A stretch of DNA of 64,000 nt, from the IMG/VR virus record IMGVR_UViG_3300042010_000040, positions 28,348 through 92,347 of that record; one strand, given 5' to 3'. Numbering within the stretch: the first letter of the stretch is position 1; the number at the start of each line of letters is the position of its first letter. The notes under the pieces are model-generated. The model was not told the DNA's origin. It ran no database searches and saw nothing but the letters and a program-made list of their open reading frames with translations. Positions 2,739 to 33,988 of this stretch are shown piece by piece. The DNA is from a virus. A program made the translations under genes and the position numbers.

Positions 2739-3500
2739 TTAGATGAGCTGAGCATATAGCCCACCCAATGATAAATCACTCAAATCTCCGTAGCCTTTGG
2801 CATTCAGAGCACCTTGAAAACCAAAATAGTTTTCCGCAATAAACTCACCAAAATTGATTCTTACACCAATTGGCTTTGGAATAAATCTAGAAGGGTAACC
2901 GGAGGAATAGGATGTATAAGTAAGTAGTACTTTCTCAAAAGAAGATAACTCTCTCCCTAGCATTACAGTAACTTCAGCATTACCCTCTGCAACAACCAAG
3001 CTCATATCAATTCCAAATATGAATTGCATAAACTCTATGAATTGGTTTGGGGTTACATTTGTATTATTCTTTACAATCTTAGCTTTAATGAACAGTCGAT
3101 ATTGTTCATCTGTAAGGAGTGTGTTCCCAGCTAAGGGATTGTTGATATCGTAATACGGTCCACCAAGTGCTGGGTTATCCAAGTCACCGTAAGATTGAGC
3201 ATCTGGATAGCCAACAAAAGCGAAGAACGTTAATAATGCTGTATCAATAAGCTCTCTTGGTTGGCCTACGATATCGCCAATGATGTCTAATTGAGCACCA
3301 ACAGCAGTGTCAATAGAGCGCTCTTGCATCAATTGACGGAAGACTTCTTGAAGTTCAATCTTTCCGCCAAGGAGGAGTTGGAGGTACTTGTCGAACACAA
3401 TCGGCCCAGAGCCATCTGAATCTAGCATAAACTGCTGAGTCACACGAGAACGTGCTACAGAAAGGTAATCCTCAATATTGAACAAATTCAATTCTGACAT
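2739..3500 (-). CDS. Baseplate wedge protein (DUF2612-like)
   Basis: SIDTAVGAQLDIIGDIVG...LTDEQYRLFIKAKI motif; located after baseplate J. Confidence 0.8.
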   Translation of the reverse strand: MSELNLFNIEDYLSVARSRVTQQFMLDSDGSGPIVFDKYLQLLLGGKIELQEVFRQLMQERSIDTAVGAQLDIIGDIVGQPRELIDTALLTFFAFVGYPDAQSYGDLDNPALGGPYYDINNPLAGNTLLTDEQYRLFIKAKIVKNNTNVTPNQFIEFMQFIFGIDMSLVVAEGNAEVTVMLGRELSSFEKVLLTYTSYSSGYPSRFIPKPIGVRINFGEFIAENYFGFQGALNAKGYGDLSDLSLGGLYAQLI

Positions 3501-7337: not shown

Positions 7338-8125
7338 TATAACTCCTCCGCTACTTTAGTTTGTGGGTCTACGTCAGGACTTGCACCGTCCGTACCACTG
7401 ACAGGCTTGGGAGTTGGATCTTGCTTACCTTTTGAAGCTTTTGGTGCAGCCTTCTTCTTGAGAGAATTCACAACATCTTGTGGGAGTACAGTCTTCTTCA
7501 ATGTAGCAAAGGTAACTTGTTCAAAGGTTAAATCACAAAACAATCCTTCGCCACTATTGACATCTTCCCTAAAGACCATGCTTGTGATGACGAGATTATT
7601 AATAATCTTCTTAAGAAGTGTCCCGTCATATTCAAACAACCTTACCAACTGAATATTGGGAACAAACTTACCTTTCTTTTCGTTGAAGATAACACCAGCC
7701 ATCAAACCAACAATAGCGTCTTTAACTGTGTCAAGGGTTTGTAGTCTAGGACCGTCAACAATAATTTCGGGGGTACTACTTGAAAGAAATTGACCAATAC
7801 TGTCTGGGATGAATTGTTTTAAAACGCTATCATCTGTAGATGCGACAGAAACTGCTGTTGGTGCTTCGTTAACATTGTAGGGAGTATTACCAACCAAGTC
7901 CTGAATAAGATAACTATTCATGGAAATGTCATAGCCGGTGATAACTGTTGACATTGTGAAGATAGGGTTTTGGCGTATAAAGTGGTCCGATATGGATGCA
8001 CCACTCGCAATAGGGTGCTTTGTTACTTGACCAGAATAATTCTCTGTACTTACCGTAATGGCGTCAAAAAACACGAATCCGCCACCCTCTTCGTTGTCCT
8101 CCCCCCATCTCAAACCAAAGCTCAT
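7337..8125 (-). CDS. Tail tube initiator / Dit-like baseplate protein
   Basis: VTKHPIASGASISDH motif; directly after the tape measure gene. Confidence 0.65.
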   Translation of the reverse strand: MSFGLRWGEDNEEGGGFVFFDAITVSTENYSGQVTKHPIASGASISDHFIRQNPIFTMSTVITGYDISMNSYLIQDLVGNTPYNVNEAPTAVSVASTDDSVLKQFIPDSIGQFLSSSTPEIIVDGPRLQTLDTVKDAIVGLMAGVIFNEKKGKFVPNIQLVRLFEYDGTLLKKIINNLVITSMVFREDVNSGEGLFCDLTFEQVTFATLKKTVLPQDVVNSLKKKAAPKASKGKQDPTPKPVSGTDGASPDVDPQTKVAEEL

Positions 8126-26411: not shown

Positions 26412-26755
26412 ATTGCTATCTCCCTTTAAGAGATGGTTCTTCTAAATTCGTTAGAACCTTATTGTTATTGTTACAAAAGGGAAATTGTATACGTGGTAGG
26501 TAATTCGTACCACTCAGCTCAATTATATTAATAAATATAATTGTGTATAAAATAAATGTATTAGCACCCACGCTACCATGGTCTAATAACTCTCTGAATG
26601 CAAAATCACTCAGCTTCTCCACTCGGTAGCTTACCTACCAGCATTTGTGTGGTTCGCCAGAACCACGGGCTTCCGAACTAGGCAGCTCAGAAATTCTTTT
26701 GAATAACATAAATCCCGAACGATATCACTACGACTGATTTCGTGCGAGTTTCTTG

Positions 26756-27160
26756 TTATTCATCTTCATCAGGTTCAACGAATACTAGTGACAGACGTGG
26801 TTTCATTTCGGCCTTGATCTGCTCAGGAGATTGCTCTTCCTCTTCAGTATCACGCTTACCTTCTGCACGAGCTTTGAAGTTTGTAATCTCATCGCTGCTA
26901 GCTGCTTTTTCAACGCTGACAATGGAATTGATAATCCACTTTGCGCTTGCGACAGACTCAGAGTTTACATTTTCATTCTTAAGACTCTTATCAATCAAAG
27001 CTAGAGCAATATCTTCGCGTTCACGAAGCTTGTCAGCCAGTTCACGCAGTTTACTCTTTTTGATTCGAACCTTACTGTTTCCCGAAGTGTTTCTGTTTGA
27101 ACGTGGCCCATCAAACCTAGTATCTGGGCTAGGATTCGGGTTTGTAATTTTCTTAGCCAT
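26756..27160 (-). CDS. Putative terminase small subunit
   Basis: Size, TRF.G..NTSG N-terminal motif, acidic tail, upstream of terL. Confidence 0.5.
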   Translation of the reverse strand: MAKKITNPNPSPDTRFDGPRSNRNTSGNSKVRIKKSKLRELADKLREREDIALALIDKSLKNENVNSESVASAKWIINSIVSVEKAASSDEITNFKARAEGKRDTEEEEQSPEQIKAEMKPRLSLVFVEPDEDE

Positions 27161-27172
27161 AAATGTTACCTA

Positions 27173-29869
27173 TTAAGATACAGAAGGCATAACGCGGAAG
27201 TTTGTACTCGTTCCGGCGACACCTTCCGCCACATTGACCCAGCCCATCGATCCACCTGCTGCAATTGTATTATTCCAAATCTTGTGACCTCTGGAATAAT
27301 AAAAACCATCGGTTGGAATTGCTGTTGCATAGTGTGGGGTGACAGAGACAAGCATCCACTCTGCTGTTGTACCTAGTTGTGGGATGATCCTTTCGAATAT
27401 CAAAGCACCACCGCTAGGGCAGGTGAGTTCAGGGACACCAGATGCACGTAGACTAATATTACCATTAGATCGTACAGTTACAGCACCGATTGCAAACAGT
27501 GTACGATGTTGTCCGGGGTTTGCCCAACCATGAAGATTTGAAATACGGATGGTCCTGTCAGCATTAGGGGACACATAGCAAGATGGATGGCCCTGCATAT
27601 CAACGTTACCAGAAGCATCAGTAACAACAATTTTGTGTTGTCTGTTGTTCTTAAACAGTGTCATTCCGGTAGTTTGCTTACTGTTCTGTCCCACGTATTC
27701 CCAAGACTGAACTTGGTCAAGGCCTACACTACTAGCGGCAACCATGTTGTCAACAGTACCGAGCATAAACCCACCGGGGCCAACCTGTGTGCGGCTGCTG
27801 ACACCTTCCCTGAAGATACCCCCATCACCAACACCACCTTGAATGAAAGTAGTTGCTACAGTTTGGGATGCGCTAACTTGGTAAGTGCCAGACTTTCCAG
27901 TTGAACCTGTCAACTGTTGGACTATGGTGGTTCCAGCAGTAACCCCAGTACCCGTTAATGACATACCCGCAGCGAACCTGCCAAGCATTGACACATCGTT
28001 CTCAATCGTAAGGGTAGTTCCTGCAATGGAGCCATTACCTCGACCCGCACCAACCGTACCATTGCCAGCATTAGCATGTCTGTTAGCTTGGAAGAATTGT
28101 TGGGCGCCAGTTTGAATGTCAAAACAGATACCTACAGATTCAAACCAAGTTTCCATTACGCTATTGTTACTGCAAGCACCAAGCTCCTTCCAACCCAATC
28201 GGGTTTTTTCACAAGCAAATTGCCCCATAGCCATTACACCAGTGGGGCAACGTGCAGCCTGACCAACACCGGCAATATCAGAAGTACTTTCACCATGACC
28301 ACTTGCATTGTCTGCAACTTCCGAGGGGGTTGGGTCAAATGTCAACAGTACACCGATATCTGATATATCATCTGGTGCTGTGCTCATACCGCCTGTGTAA
28401 CCGTTCTCAAGTTCAATTTGACCGTGTTGGCCAGTGAACATGTAGCCAATACTGCCAATAGCTCCACGGGCACCTACTTGACAATCCTGAAACTTAACAA
28501 ACTGGTTTGGGAGAAGTGAATGAGCATCGGTATATCCGGCTCTTGACCACACACATCTGTTGAAGTTAATGATTCTGACATTGAAGAATGTCGTGTGCCA
28601 CAACCCACCTTGAGTGTACCCAGCATCCCATTTTGCACGGGCATACAATCCCCACTGTGTTGGGTTGACAGGTGCCACGTTAAAGTCTGCTGTTGATGCT
28701 CCGCTTATAGTGAGGTTAGACCACCCGCATTCTGCAACAACGCCAGAGTCAATTTCCACCATCCCGTAAGTAAATCCGGGATCTGCTACAGGAAGAGCAA
28801 CAAACCCACCATTCCTCACGCCGGGGCCGTCAACTGGAACTCTGGAGCGGATGGTTAGCTTAGTTACGGGGGAGAAGCCAGACCCAAGTCTAACCTTACC
28901 CCCACCCTTACTGGACGCATATAGAGATGCTTTTTCACAAGCCAGAGTGTCATCTGTCACGCCGTCAGCCAGTCTACCAAACTCCTCCATCCAAATTTCA
29001 CCGGAAGTAATTCTTTGGAACCTGCCTGTTGGAACACCCACAACAGCGAAAGTATACCCACCATTATCCGGTTCTGTTGAAGCAGAGTCCCATATGAAAT
29101 CACCACCGCCGCGTGGGCCAAGATAAGGTACTCTTGTGGACCACCCAGCATGATAGGATGCGACTTTATAAGTAAGGCCAGTCTTTCTTGGTAGCGTCAA
29201 TAGGTCTGCAACAGAATCAACAGACACCACAGCACTGCCAACATTCAGTGCTGCACCATCGGCAGCAAGGTCTGCAATGCTTACTTTTGTACTTAGAAGA
29301 CCTTCTGTGTAAACAGCAGAAGCCTGTGCATCATTGGCGGAGTCTAAGGAGTCTTGAGCAGAAGCAGCGCTTTCAGCAGCTTTAGTAGTCGCTGTAACTG
29401 CACTTGATGCTGAAGACACAGCCGAAGTTTGACTTGCTGTGGCACTATTGGCAGAAGCTGTTGCAGAGTTAGCCGAATTCGTAGCACTTACCGCAGCTTG
29501 GCTTGCAGACGCAGCAGCAGCATTCTTACTAGCCAATGCACCAGCAGCATCAGCAGCCACTTGAGCTGCCAAGCCATCACTATGAGCTGTCTGATCAAGC
29601 ATCAACAATTCATTAATTGTTGTCTGCGTTGTATCATCTGTAATCTCAATATTACCAATGTTGGCATAAGATCTGTATTCTAAAGAAAATACACTAACAT
29701 GATACCAACCGTTTGGGACATCAATTTCATACTCACCATCTTCATCTGTCTTAAAGTCTTTTGTTACAAACATAAGAACTTGTTCAGAGGTGTTATTAGC
29801 TGTAATCCGAACAGAAGAGTTTTTGTATGGTTCGCCTGTAGGGGTGAGGAGGGTGCCTGAAAGAATCAT
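27173..29869 (-). CDS. Tailspike/fibre: Stf-like N-terminus, Ala/Ser linker, pectin-lyase-like beta-helix
   Basis: ILSGTLL..GEP...TD.DG.Y..DV..G.Y.VS N-terminus; GGGDFIWD; [10 protein letters not shown] beta-helix entry motif. Confidence 0.78.
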
Positions 29870-30144
29870 ATTGTCCCTACTGAGGTGGAGAGCTTGTTTT
29901 GTTTTTATAGAAAGATTTTCTTAAAGCCTATCAACAGGACAACCTGCAATACATTTAGAAATGATAATAGGACTTAAGAAAATCAACTCTTTAGAGGAGA
30001 GGGCTAAAGAGTTGATGAAAGAATGTCTACAGGAGAGGATAGACTTCTTTAAGATGCTGACGCGAGAGGAAGAGGAGGAGAACGTCAGCTTTGAAGGCAC
30101 CATTAATAAAGAATTTATACTTGGATGGTGTCGGGTGAAACTAA

Positions 30145-30254
30145 TTTGAGTGGTTGGTACTGAACTCCAACTTGCTGACGGCATATTCAGCAGCATACCC
30201 GCGTTGTGCTATTTCTAGTCTTACGCTGTGTATCAGTCTACACATTCACTCAAA
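30145..30254 (-). ncRNA. Candidate structured ncRNA (five-way junction with kissing loops)
   Basis: 8-bp closing stem enclosing four hairpins; GAAA tetraloop; ACTGA and TCAGT loops are complementary. Confidence 0.55.
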
Positions 30255-30256
30255 AC

Positions 30257-30338
30257 TGGAGCATACCTTGAAGGAATCTAACCTTCGACAACTTAAACGT
30301 ATTCTAGACTACAGAATAAGGAGCCAACATGAGGCAGC
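30257..30338 (-). ncRNA. tRNA-like / degenerate tRNA
   Basis: Acceptor-like GCTGCCT/AGGTA(T)GC plus TCCA end; T-arm GAAGG-TTAGATT-CCTTC; 6-bp arm with 7-nt loop; no proper D-arm. Confidence 0.4.
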
Positions 30339-30483
30339 ATAAAACTTTAGTTTGAATCTTTAAATTCATTACCCCGTATTAAAACCATTTGAGCATCAAT
30401 AAAGACACACATTGATAAGCTTGTTTAATTCCGAGGATTTCAGAACTCGTCAGTTCATTTCTTTAAGGGGCTCTAAGGCCTAC

Positions 30484-30573
30484 GAAAAGACATTATTATG
30501 TCTCTCGGAATTGGAGTATAAATACTTCCTTTATTTTTCCCTAAAAATTTCCGCTGGTCTTCCTTGACCCAGT
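30484..30573 (-). ncRNA. Candidate RsmY/RsmZ-like GGA-repeat sRNA
   Basis: Starts at the predicted TSS; UCAAGGAAGA hairpin; four GGA motifs in the first 50 nt; ends in hairpin plus UUUU. Confidence 0.45.
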
Positions 30574-30579
30574 AAAACA

Positions 30580-30608
30580 AGTATGAACTATAAAAGTTCT
30601 TTTGTCAA
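30580..30608 (-). promoter_or_regulatory. sigma70 promoter driving the non-coding region
   Basis: TTGACA-17-CATACT with AT-rich upstream sequence. Confidence 0.7.
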
Positions 30609-30632
30609 GTAATTGACTAATTTATTTGCAAT

Positions 30633-30779
30633 TTATTCAAAAATAGGCATCACTTTACGGAATTGTGTGTTTCCTTCGGTGATACTTTCGAATGCATACT
30701 CAAATTTAAAGTCTGGATTGTCTTCTTCCCACAAATCTTCTTCAAGTTCTTCGTCTTCAAGATAATCTTCAATTTTCAT
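30633..30779 (-). CDS. Small acidic protein (48 aa)
   Basis: AGGA SD, overlaps the HNH stop; MKIEDYLEDEELEEDLWEED... Confidence 0.55.
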   Translation of the reverse strand: MKIEDYLEDEELEEDLWEEDNPDFKFEYAFESITEGNTQFRKVMPIFE

Positions 30780-31554
30780 TTTTAATCCTATTCTTTCTCT
30801 TTTTGATTGCTATCTTTTCCCAGTCATCTGGGTGTTTAGCGTTCTTTTCTAAATTACATGTTGGACACAGCAGTTGAATATTCTCAGGCCAATTACTCCC
30901 ACCTAATGCAAGCGGCATAATATGATCTGCGTGGTAACTTGTGAATATTAAGTTAGCAAGACATCCTGTACACAGGCCATTTTGTTTAACAAATAAGTTA
31001 TGTATATCGTCTGCTGTAAACTCGCCTTCAGCGTTCTTTATTCTTGCACGTCTTCGGTGTGAATTAGCTTTGAGTGTGGCTTTATTTTCTAAAGTGTAGT
31101 TCTTAGCTCTTTCTTTGTAGCATTCAACGCAACCACCAGAGTCAGCATATTTCTTACTAAAATGTCCTTTTAATTCACAAGCAACATTATCGTAGTAATA
31201 CTTTTCTTCTACATATATGGCTTGTGCTCTGGTTTTAGGTAAGAAAGATAATTCCATTTCAAGAAGTTTTGTTGATTCGGGGCTATCTGGATCAGCAACA
31301 GACTTTAGGAAGTCCATTGTGTCTTTAGCATATTGAATTGCTTCTTTTGCTGTTTGTTTGCGTTTGTATTTCTCTTCAGCCCTATCGGAACTCTGTTCTC
31401 TAAATAAATCGTTTTGTTCGTGAATGCATTCAACACATTTAGTGGATTCAACCATTCTGTCTGCTATATGTCCATTCTTACATTCTTCACCAATAAAGTA
31501 ATATACCTCACCAGCTTTTCTTGCGTCACTTCTACTTATAAATTCCACTACCAC
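30769..31554 (-). CDS. HNH endonuclease
   Basis: CTGC...HADHIMPLALGGSNWPENIQLLCPTCN; N-terminal CxxGH..CVEC repeats. Confidence 0.88.
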   Translation of the reverse strand: MVVEFISRSDARKAGEVYYFIGEECKNGHIADRMVESTKCVECIHEQNDLFREQSSDRAEEKYKRKQTAKEAIQYAKDTMDFLKSVADPDSPESTKLLEMELSFLPKTRAQAIYVEEKYYYDNVACELKGHFSKKYADSGGCVECYKERAKNYTLENKATLKANSHRRRARIKNAEGEFTADDIHNLFVKQNGLCTGCLANLIFTSYHADHIMPLALGGSNWPENIQLLCPTCNLEKNAKHPDDWEKIAIKKRKNRIKNEN

Positions 31555-31683
31555 CGTACCTAATCAATGTCAATCTAATTAGTATACGGGGTAGATAGCT
31601 TATTAATCAAGCTTTCACAATATTTATTTCTTATTTGAAACTGTATTATATTGAGTTTGTCAAGTTATATTTAAAATAATTGT

Positions 31684-32931
31684 TCAAACAGATAACTTCT
31701 CCTCAATAGCAACACCATCTTCTTTCCAATTCAGACTGATAGGCACTAAATAATCCACACCAAACCTTTTACGAAAGCAATCACCCATAGTTTTTGATAG
31801 TAAGTCAGCATTCTTAGTCTGCACCAAAAATGAGTCATGCACTGGCAAGCATGAGATATTCTTTTCAATCATCACCTCTAGAATATCATTAGCCAAATGA
31901 CTATCAGCATTTTGTAAGATACGCCCCATGCTATCTGGGCAACAGAAGAAATCACCAAACTGTGGGTATTTATCATAGATAAGCAACATCACAGCCTTTG
32001 CACCGCCAAGGGAATACTTCTTTTTGTCTTCATCCTTAAGCAGATTAATCTCTTTACGAATAGCACCCTCTGCATCGTCGTCGTTATAGCAGTTAAACAT
32101 GATGTTAACAGCGAGCTTCACGATACGACGATCTACTGTGTTTGTTTCATCTTCAAGAATACCTGAGTAAACGTCTAGTGGAAGGTACTCGACATCAATA
32201 TCCTTGAGAGCAGCAGCTACACGAAAATGTAGATTGCAGAAGTCAATCTCACAAACTTCCTGACCTTCAATCTTAATATCAAGTCGTGCATCCGTATCTC
32301 GATTCTTAATTGCCAGCACATCAGCTTTATAAAATCGACCACCGTAAGCAAACGACTCATTGAAGATACGACAGTAGAAGTTTGTGAGAGTCTTACCACT
32401 ACCATCTTCAATACGAAATGATTCATTCATATGGTTGAGCTTACGAACAACCTCTTCCATTTTCTTGATATCTTGTGTGTTACGATAAGGGATTGAATTC
32501 TTGTCTTCATCTCGCAATTCAATAACCTTCACGGTGTCTTCATATGCTTTCATAGTTTCCTCAATCAATTCTTCCATGTGCCAGACTTCAATGAACTTCT
32601 GGGTTGGAGTGATGTAGCTAACTTCCCTCTTCTCTTTAATCTTATGTGGCTTACCCTTAACATTAACCACATAACCTTCATGTACTAAGTATTCAATACA
32701 ACGAATAACCTTACGAGAGGTAATATCTTTCTTACTACTTGTCTTTGTTCCTCCTGTGTCTCTACTATACACAAGCTTACATTGTTTCTTAAGACAAGCA
32801 ATCAGATTAGTGACAACCACACCTAACGTAGTAATGTCCTTATATCCATACACCCTAATAGCATTACTTACCTCTCTACTAACTTTAATATCATAGGTTA
32901 GTAGCTTAGTATTCAAGATTACATCTCCCAT
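31684..32931 (-). CDS. Minimal PolA / T7-RNAP-superfamily polymerase-like protein
   Basis: GGRFY, EIDFCNLHFR (motif A-like), RRIVKLAVN (motif B-like), LQNADS and PVHDSF (motif C-like) in the expected order; GAGGAGG SD. Confidence 0.65.
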   Translation of the reverse strand: MGDVILNTKLLTYDIKVSREVSNAIRVYGYKDITTLGVVVTNLIACLKKQCKLVYSRDTGGTKTSSKKDITSRKVIRCIEYLVHEGYVVNVKGKPHKIKEKREVSYITPTQKFIEVWHMEELIEETMKAYEDTVKVIELRDEDKNSIPYRNTQDIKKMEEVVRKLNHMNESFRIEDGSGKTLTNFYCRIFNESFAYGGRFYKADVLAIKNRDTDARLDIKIEGQEVCEIDFCNLHFRVAAALKDIDVEYLPLDVYSGILEDETNTVDRRIVKLAVNIMFNCYNDDDAEGAIRKEINLLKDEDKKKYSLGGAKAVMLLIYDKYPQFGDFFCCPDSMGRILQNADSHLANDILEVMIEKNISCLPVHDSFLVQTKNADLLSKTMGDCFRKRFGVDYLVPISLNWKEDGVAIEEKLSV

Positions 32932-33072
32932 CCTCCTCTATACCTCCCTACTATCATATAACGCAATTTTAGAGACAAAATGCTCTGTAGGCCACAGCCA
33001 CAAAGGCTTGTAGCAAAAATCCCATAAATAAGTTTGCCTAAATTCGTCTGTAGGCATCAAATCTGAACAACC

Positions 33073-33102
33073 ATATTGGCACACACAGCAGCACCTTGTC
33101 AA
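33073..33102 (-). promoter_or_regulatory. sigma70-like promoter for the polymerase-like gene
   Basis: TTGACA-18-CAATAT. Confidence 0.45.
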
Positions 33103-33147
33103 CTCTCCCACAACATTATTTTTATTCCAAACAAATCTATTCACCGC

Positions 33148-33176
33148 TTGCAATCCCTGAATCATGCGTGTAATAT
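33148..33176 (+). promoter_or_regulatory. sigma70-like promoter opening the plus-strand operon
   Basis: TTGCAA-17-TAATAT; divergent from the 33073 promoter. Confidence 0.6.
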
Positions 33177-33208
33177 GACTTCATCAACTGAACGAAGGAG
33201 AGAAATAA

Positions 33209-33382
33209 ATGATTTTGAAAGACTTGATTGATGCTTTACAGAGAGCAGAGGAAGCTAATGACTTGTTGCTGAGGTTGTGGTTGCAGATTGACGTGTATTC
33301 CGGAGAGCTTCGAGAGGGTAAGCTTGATGTTCATACCCTCAATGAGTTGCTGCATTTCTTTAATTTCGATGATAGCGAATAG
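33209..33382 (+). CDS. Hypothetical protein (57 aa)
   Basis: AAGGAG SD; first gene after the promoter. Confidence 0.6.
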   Translation: MILKDLIDALQRAEEANDLLLRLWLQIDVYSGELREGKLDVHTLNELLHFFNFDDSE

Positions 33383-33392
33383 GAGAACCCAA

Positions 33393-33548
33393 ATGCCCAT
33401 CATCCACCTACACACCTACCGTCTCCTGAAACAAATCCTTGAACATGCAGATAAGGTTGTGATAGTGTCGGTAAACACAGATGATGGGAAGCAAATGGCA
33501 TATACTTATGTGAAACGTAAACAAACTGAGAAGGGAGAGAAGAAATAA
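33393..33548 (+). CDS. Hypothetical protein
   Basis: AGGAG SD before ATG 33393. Confidence 0.5.
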   Translation: MPIIHLHTYRLLKQILEHADKVVIVSVNTDDGKQMAYTYVKRKQTEKGEKK

Positions 33549-33988
33549 TGGGAATGTACACAGAAATTCAAGGTACTATTGAGTTTACAACCGAAACACT
33601 GGCTGAATGTTTTGTAGGAAAGAATCAGTGGTCAATGATGGGTCACACATTGGATAAAGTAAAACCGTTCATCACATTCAGCCGAAGTCACTGGATACCA
33701 CATTCAGGTGATGGTGTAAAGTCAATTGAAGGTAATATTGTAAAGTTTCACAGTGAGCTTAAGAACTATGACCACACAATCGAAGAGTTCTTGAAGCTAC
33801 TTCCTTTTATGGCTAAGAAATGGTGCTTAGAAACTCGTTATGAAGAATGCAGTAACTGGACATTGCACAGGAATGATGAAGAAGATATCGACGTGAATGG
33901 TGATAACTACTTTGACAGAGAGCGGAGTAATGTTCCCGAGCAAATCTATCCAGATATTGATGTGTTTGATGAGAGTAACTTGAAATGA
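33548..33988 (+). CDS. Hypothetical protein (MGMYTE-type conserved phage protein)
   Basis: Coupled start; LKNYD..IEEFL and RYEE motifs. Confidence 0.7.
   Translation: MGMYTEIQGTIEFTTETLAECFVGKNQWSMMGHTLDKVKPFITFSRSHWIPHSGDGVKSIEGNIVKFHSELKNYDHTIEEFLKLLPFMAKKWCLETRYEECSNWTLHRNDEEDIDVNGDNYFDRERSNVPEQIYPDIDVFDESNLK

Follow-up and report, generated by a model that had tools for sequence, protein, structure and literature searches.

The question raised by this locus is what a phage genome encodes where open reading frames (ORFs) run out, between the gene for a small polymerase-like protein and the genes for morphogenesis. The window analysed here is a 64,000-nucleotide (nt) stretch, bases 28348-92347 of the 92,347-bp IMG/VR record IMGVR_UViG_3300042010_000040, which is the genome, estimated to be complete, of an uncultured soil phage; all positions below without a locus number are those of the window. 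A model that saw only the letters (hereafter the sequence-only reading) had proposed, at 30145-32931, a locus producing several non-coding RNAs (ncRNAs) beside a minimal polymerase, at the head of the late operon. Our analysis partly confirmed this observation and partly supported its interpretation. As judged by sequence comparison, the core of the flagged range is mostly spacer, and the real element lies at its edge: a five-hairpin RNA of ~235 nt, for which we built a covariance model named R1 (29903-30145, minus strand), and which touches the lower coordinate of the flagged range.

The region 29870-30200 is strongly structured (fold z −4.41), and within it R1 forms the hairpins P1 (30098-30130), P2 (30056-30089), P3 (30018-30050), P4 (29982-30016) and P5 (29917-29981), all on the minus strand. 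Using nhmmer, we found R1 in six other phage contigs (eight fetched loci, since two of the contigs were fetched twice), and in some of these carriers the polymerase-like protein is just 46-54% identical to the one encoded here. All seven R1 sequences fold singly into the same five hairpins, and an alignment of these seven copies made with MAFFT only shows compensatory change in 22 of 32 predicted pairs. The covariance model extended the set to 31 distinct copies in viral contigs, with one copy per genome, and to at least three copies in metagenome contigs (3 true stretches of 80 among the matches listed). In the 31-sequence alignment, 91.1% of the cells are paired, a share that drops to 39-47% once the partners are slid. 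Changes on both sides are seen in 37 of the 42 pairs, and 0 of 500 shuffles reached these values. This alignment was fitted to model R1, and the unfitted MAFFT alignment agrees with it. Because G-U pairs are frequent on this strand, the transcribed strand of R1 is fixed. Comparison at the sequence level thus describes R1 as a single-copy, strand-specific and well-conserved structured RNA.

Rfam at its gathering thresholds gave no match in the 64-kb window, a blastn search of 29800-32950 against 50,697 phage records returned none either, and R1 is described neither in Rfam nor in the papers that we searched. The phage's large terminase shares ~50% identity with its counterparts in Otagovirus and Nankokuvirus, two genera of Pseudomonas myoviruses. 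The reads that best match the phage originate from rhizosphere DNA metagenomes, and none of the sequencing runs listed for it is of RNA. Model R1 found nothing in the Vibrio phages HNL01 and 1.121.O or in the Pseudomonas phages 16Q, Ep020 and RP8, the last of these a Nankokuvirus and the two before it members of Otagovirus (PAK_P3, discussed below, was itself not searched); the tRNA region of RP8, inspected by eye, also differs in having no CU-rich triple loops. R1 is a new RNA family, whose general type is known from the stable RNAs of phage tRNA arrays and from small RNAs (sRNAs) with several anti-Shine-Dalgarno (anti-SD) loops.

The resemblance to the latter lies in the loops. Those of P2, P3 and P4 carry the CU-rich word CCUCUCCU or a close variant in nearly all of the 31 members, and their stems drift. 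CCUCUCCU is the exact complement of AGGAGA, the hexamer that most often precedes ORFs in this phage (21 of 178, vs. 5 for AGGAGG) and thus its commonest SD form. Other single-stranded words are conserved as well: GUUUCACC, referred to here as the 5′ word, CUUAAAGA at the P3 base, and the P1 inner loop.

R1 is found in a slot where relatives keep tRNAs, as the sequence-only reading had supposed. In several fetched loci (numbered L; G numbers denote genomes, L115 being G022, L122 being G013 and L121 being G011), tRNAs occur 0.4-4 kb downstream of the polymerase-like gene, with 1-7 tRNAs around the slot in the fetched loci of the same clade. They abut R1 in six loci (L003, L025, L114, L115, L117 and L121), where a tRNA ends 0-6 nt from the conserved 5′ word, and the letters CCA stand directly before this word in 11 of the 31 members. 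At the other end of R1, a tRNA-Gln starts at its last base in L123, between R1 and the next gene. In the phage studied here, neither ARAGORN nor RF00005 (no match at E ≤ 10) found a tRNA in the whole 92-kb genome, and for the window the ARAGORN count of 0 did not change when its settings were relaxed. These comparisons of sequence identify the locus as the slot for tRNAs in a clade of phages with genomes of 85-93 kb, with tRNAs that appear to have decayed in this member.

What the sequence-only reading had called a tRNA-like unit does show an acceptor-like stem and a T-arm-like hairpin, but it is called neither by ARAGORN nor by RF00005. Because neither finds a tRNA, the term tRNA-like refers here to that stem and that hairpin only. 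The predicted folds give two such units on the minus strand. Unit 1 (30257-30338) has a bulged acceptor-like stem, a T-arm-like hairpin and an encoded CCA, with no D arm (fold z −0.8), and unit 2 (30146-30254) joins an 8-bp closing stem to an adjoining T-arm-like hairpin and three inner hairpins (fold z −1.55); a unit in L007 has the layout of unit 2, though its closing stem differs in sequence. Neither unit 1 nor unit 2 occurs in the G013-type variant of the locus, where 420 other letters stand in place of 472 nt; this was the only variant seen in four DNA runs. In unit 2 and in the L007 unit (7434-7541), 5 nt of the T-arm-like loop are complementary to a second stretch within their own unit. 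The two phages differ in the sequences involved, and this complementarity, seen in these two cases only (in L007 by eye), may represent an elbow-like tertiary contact. Units of similar shape were also observed next to R1 elsewhere. Directly before R1 in L002 (8645-8722, plus strand) is a tRNA-shaped unit of 78 nt that has a T arm, encodes CCA and forms an acceptor stem of 7 bp; it is not called by ARAGORN, which calls two tRNAs just upstream. Likewise, just after R1 in L014 (7505-7580, plus strand), a Tyr-type anticodon loop is accompanied by a canonical T arm, again with no call from ARAGORN.

A second conserved structured RNA of 128 nt, here called module 2 (30353-30480, minus strand), lies upstream of R1, from which the two tRNA-like units separate it, and is kept in four genomes: it is 95% identical in L122 and also occurs in L115 and in L121 (nhmmer E 5e-9). 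It consists of two covarying parts, a hairpin whose loop reads UGACGA and a long-range helix of 5 bp, and 6 of its 13 predicted pairs show compensatory change. The ATCAAT/ATTGAT hairpin that had been listed as a module in its own right is real, but it is the variable tip of module 2. A hammerhead ribozyme was considered for module 2 and rejected, as Rfam gave no hit in 29800-31800 at E ≤ 10 and the CUGA-like word is the loop of the covarying hairpin, with no room for stem II. In L112, the Hammerhead_3 model matched weakly (22.7 bits, E 2.8) at 3297-3342 (minus strand), ~65 nt upstream of the R1 copy of that phage; this match is probably due to chance.

We tentatively read R1 as a stable RNA that would be cut out together with tRNAs and would act in trans via its anti-SD-like loops, an account that is plausible though far from assured. 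In its favour are the covarying fold, the match of the loop word to AGGAGA and, for release as a separate RNA, the tRNAs that adjoin R1, the CCA before the 5′ word and the ORF that follows R1 in L010 and L114. It also has two precedents, PAK_P3 ncRNA2 and the alpha-r14/NfeR1 sRNAs. In the related Pseudomonas phage PAK_P3 (Nankokuvirus), processing yields abundant ncRNAs within the tRNA array, and one of them, ncRNA2, flanked by tRNA-Tyr and tRNA-Gln, lacks its own start site, is processed, and is abundant late in infection (PMC10914365). Like R1, ncRNA1 and ncRNA2 are found among or beside tRNA genes and upstream of the structural module; they are stable, lack start sites of their own and arise by processing (PMC10914365). 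PAK_P3 sRNA2, an experimentally supported RNA comparable to unit 2, forms a T arm and an acceptor-like stem in its fold, as do the two tRNA-like units described above. Each alpha-r14 sRNA shows an identical anti-SD loop on three hairpins with unrelated stems and silences mRNAs by pairing with the ribosome-binding site, and in NfeR1 of Sinorhizobium meliloti the three loops are redundant seeds (PMC10746234). R1 resembles the alpha-r14 family (RF02344) in that consecutive hairpins with unrelated stems show one anti-SD-type loop word, and the ar14 feature of three hairpins with an identical anti-SD loop word is found in P2-P4 across the 31 members. On the trans-acting reading, the array would be transcribed as one unit from a sigma-70-type promoter and cut by the host enzymes that process tRNAs (RNase P, RNase Z or E), and the tRNA-like units would have been kept as cutting handles in a phage that has no tRNAs. 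Once released, R1 would pair in trans, through three redundant loops, with purine-rich ribosome-binding sites, and this pairing would change which mRNAs start translation, as the alpha-r14/NfeR1 sRNAs do. The tRNA cluster of phage T4 includes two stable RNAs that we take to be comparable phage RNAs. To our knowledge, the non-tRNA RNAs that travel with tRNA arrays, namely the stable RNAs of T4 and the ncRNAs of PAK_P3, have gone without an assigned function for decades.

Several points weigh against such a role in trans, beginning with the fact that the expression, ends and processing of R1 are all inferred. The whole length of the Rfam ar14 model can be aligned with P2-P4, but the score of 30.2 bits falls far short of the 58.8 bits set as threshold, and among nine other R1 members the model gives a weak hit (24.9 bits) in one and none in eight; the likeness between R1 and ar14 is one of architecture, not of descent. 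The two also differ in the loop word itself (CCUCUCCU in R1, CCUCCUCCC in alpha-r14), in the two extra conserved hairpins (P1 and P5) and the conserved 5′ word of R1, and in that R1 is phage-encoded, joined to tRNAs, and without a terminator. When pairing of the loops with start regions is predicted, late genes (−6.7/−7.6 kcal/mol) and other genes (−7.0/−7.7) do not differ in strength, and because early and late energies are alike, a role in shutting off early genes gains no support. These energies were computed against this phage's own start regions only. A general competitor for SD sequences would strike the phage's own mRNAs too. Finally, no terminator follows P5 and the next start codon is close by, an arrangement that favours a leader acting in cis. 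R1 would then stay on the mRNA as the leader of the first late gene, its pyrimidine-rich loops serving as a ribosome standby site, as a platform for binding S1, or as a stabilising 5′ structure for a weakly SD-equipped gene, either that of a conserved 134-amino-acid (aa) protein or that of the tail fibre. We regard this as possible but doubtful. R1 is always on the strand of the next gene, which is usually the 134-aa homologue; its start codon lies within ~45 nt of the model end in ~15 of 26 loci, and the downstream start regions have a short AGG-type SD only. The tail-fibre gene intervenes in five genomes only (this phage, L002, L007, L112 and L122), and where present it follows R1 directly, beginning 33 nt after it here. 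A tRNA nevertheless separates R1 from the gene in L123 and another ORF separates it from the 134-aa gene in L010 and L114, the tRNAs that abut its 5′ end lead one to expect cutting, and a loop word present in three identical copies is less characteristic of leaders than of multi-seed or sponge RNAs.

A sponge, or a scaffold for a protein that binds CU-rich or anti-SD-like single strands, is somewhat less to be expected. Candidate partners would be Rho, ribosomal protein S1, a factor with a KH domain, or a toxin or other factor directed against the 16S 3′ end, in parallel with CsrB/RsmZ, which bind CsrA through repeated GGA loops. R1 shares with such RNAs the display of one short loop word on many hairpins, here in three exposed loops on covarying stems, and its other conserved single-stranded words (GUUUCACC, the P1 inner loop and CUUAAAGA) suggest recognition beyond pairing; the word of CsrB/RsmZ, in contrast, is GGA and their partner CsrA, whereas the R1 word is the pyrimidine counterpart. 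No result points to a protein partner, however, and no conserved neighbouring gene looks RNA-binding. A put-type element for processive antitermination, whereby the nascent RNA would bind RNA polymerase and carry it through the terminators of the ~30-kb late unit, is improbable and gains no specific support. Sigma-70-like promoters do lie upstream of R1, which heads a long minus-strand structural block, with a near-consensus site ending 18 nt upstream of the R1 model in L119 and, by eye, a −10-like hexamer ~30 nt upstream of R1 in L008. Yet the distance from promoter to R1 varies from 18 to ~680 nt with tRNAs in between, these flanking tRNAs imply release from the transcript, and R1 has no likeness to put, nut or boxA and no match in Rfam. 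It is more improbable still that R1 is a DNA-level packaging signal recognised by the terminase: it adjoins the gene for a possible small terminase (the 134-aa protein, an assignment that is only putative) and shows one word three times within ~110 bp, but its stems covary so as to keep pairing while their sequences drift, and its many G-U pairs, if read from the opposite strand or placed in a DNA cruciform, would turn into C-A mismatches.

The remaining alternative would tie R1 to the 415-aa polymerase-like protein, which it would serve as a partner, primer or template. A partner or template RNA of the polymerase had been put forward by the sequence-only reading on the grounds of adjacency, together with a check of co-occurrence and synteny across phage genomes. 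A paralog of the polymerase-like gene lies 0.5-3.6 kb upstream of R1, on the same strand, in 18 of 28 R1 records; in 8 of these 18 the place is held by a distant paralog (~450 aa, E ~1e-20 to the profile). In 9 of the 28, the polymerase-like gene is 25-58 kb away and no such ORF occurs within 4 kb upstream, and the one remaining record, a fragment, has no polymerase-like gene. Among 25 near-complete records, the protein is present in 25 and R1 in 22; the three without a hit were searched with the first model at default filters, so a divergent copy is possible. The Vibrio phages HNL01 and 1.121.O, with no R1 hit, carry the protein family at 32-36% identity. Synteny thus holds in part, as does independent distribution, and because all the genomes belong to one clade, the shared presence of R1 and polymerase is inherited and does not count as independent evidence. 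We therefore consider a partnership very improbable; the polymerase-like gene appears from these gene arrangements to be a neighbour of R1, linked to it by synteny only.

The stretch on which the sequence-only reading had centred proved less conserved than R1. It had been described as a run of consecutive folded modules; at least two conserved structured RNAs are indeed present, but 30197-30585 as a whole folds like shuffled sequence (z −0.48). The inverted repeats that had been named are present in the sequence. The consensus promoter that had been placed at 30580-30608 is likewise there, as a sigma-70-like candidate TTGACA-17-CATACT (30608-30580, minus strand) matching at 10 of 12 positions, but it is one of 19 minus-strand sites with at least 10/12 in the window. 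Sigma-70-like sites are not enriched in 29500-33600 (10, vs. 13.1 ± 3.6 in shuffles), and near-consensus sites lie 18-680 nt upstream of an RNA or tRNA module in many relatives. The GGA hairpins fall in a lineage-specific, GGA-rich leader (30481-30579, minus strand; fold z −1.29) with no homologue in any fetched locus, and their density is unexceptional, as four GGA in 61 nt is a density reached by 0.5% (~325) of the 60-nt windows of that strand. The 9-bp AATTCCGAG helix, proposed to close a multi-branch domain at 30427-30512, is missing from the homologous element of three other phages. A decoy set for CsrA/RsmA, one of the functions first suggested, is not borne out, the GGA stretch being lineage-specific, not significantly enriched and without an Rfam match at E ≤ 10; specifically, 30481-30608 has no such match to CsrB, RsmY or RsmZ and no conserved GGA loops. 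On this sequence evidence, we consider the GGA stretch and the 9-bp helix to be lineage-specific spacer.

The gene order that had been read from the sequence was confirmed by the ORF list and Pfam. The minus-strand block runs from 33165 down to the left end of the window and opens with a 75-aa ORF, followed by the 415-aa family-A-polymerase-like ORF (31684-32931), an HNH endonuclease gene (30769-31554; PF01844, E 1.5e-10), a 48-aa acidic ORF taken from the ORF list (30633-30779), the promoter-like site and an ORF-poor stretch, after which come the tail-fibre gene (27173-29869; PF08400, E 1.3e-11), the conserved 134-aa ORF (26756-27160), with homologues in most loci, and then packaging and head genes, all on the minus strand. 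The ORF-poor stretch is real, but it measures ~760 nt and not ~430 nt, because the 91-aa ORF at 29921-30196 that overlaps R1, Ser-rich, has no counterpart in relatives. The DNA of the 48-aa ORF is 73% identical to a stretch upstream of R1 in L115. In L002 and L004, whose polymerase-like proteins are 98% identical to the one here, there is no HNH gene at this place, which is occupied by other small ORFs and tRNAs; because it is missing from these two relatives, its sequence context points to the HNH gene being a recent mobile insertion. These closest relatives share no DNA with our phage between the polymerase-like gene and the tail-fibre gene, and the slot is, by this comparison of sequences, hypervariable. 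As for the 134-aa protein, it has no Pfam or PHROG family and gives a low-confidence helical model (pLDDT, the predicted local distance difference test, 69.6); it is possibly a small terminase, for which DUF5681 is an unconfirmed lead only. The 344-nt gap after its ORF (26412-26755, minus strand) is strongly structured (z −5.2; 0 of 100 shuffles as good) and contains a promoter-like site at 26551-26522.

The label of a minimal polymerase-like protein was found to be fair at the level of the predicted structure. The 415-aa protein has no Pfam family at E ≤ 0.01, PF00476 (DNA_pol_A) gives no match, and phrog_4756, of unassigned function, is its sole PHROG match. It has >225 homologues of 410-460 aa, and our literature searches found this small polymerase family described nowhere in the papers covered. 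An AlphaFold model built from 30 sequences (pLDDT 89.4) matches Pol I-type polymerases in Foldseek (E 2e-5, probability 1.0), and in VIA-align the apicoplast DNA polymerase and the yeast mitochondrial RNA polymerase each score a Z of 14.7, with superpositions at a root-mean-square deviation of 3.6-4.2 over 245-255 residues. The model thus predicts a family-A polymerase fold, with palm and fingers of the Pol I/T7 type, shared over ~250 residues (Z 14-14.7) with Pol I, T7 DNA and RNA polymerases, and mitochondrial RNA polymerase. In the 30 sequences of the family, D230, K272 and H365-D366-S367-F368 are invariant, so that acidic residues occupy motif-A-like (D230) and motif-C-like (D366) places, their equivalence to the catalytic aspartates being judged by eye from the motifs. 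We presume that the motif C, HDSF, reads as in T7-type RNA polymerases. Unlike the known family-A enzymes, the protein is about half their size and lacks an exonuclease or N-terminal domain. A canonical PolA is encoded elsewhere in the genome and is the one detected by PF00476, and related genomes (G001-G025) each have 1-3 paralogs of the polymerase-like family.

For this phage clade, the results mean that adjacency to a small polymerase is not kept, and that tRNA-shaped remnants in a phage without tRNAs may persist as cutting handles. With a family of at least 34 members, very strong covariation and three identical SD-complementary loops, the question of function has been made testable. Phage tRNA arrays are seen as tools for taking over translation and for counter-defence. 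A bolder proposal, which we regard as unlikely, is that R1 would be a phage mimic of the ribosome's anti-SD tail, made with tRNA-like processing handles, that would retune initiation across the cell or draw off a host factor or a defence toxin aimed at the 16S 3′ end. If this were true, the counter-defence decoy role of phage tRNAs would be extended to ribosomal RNA.

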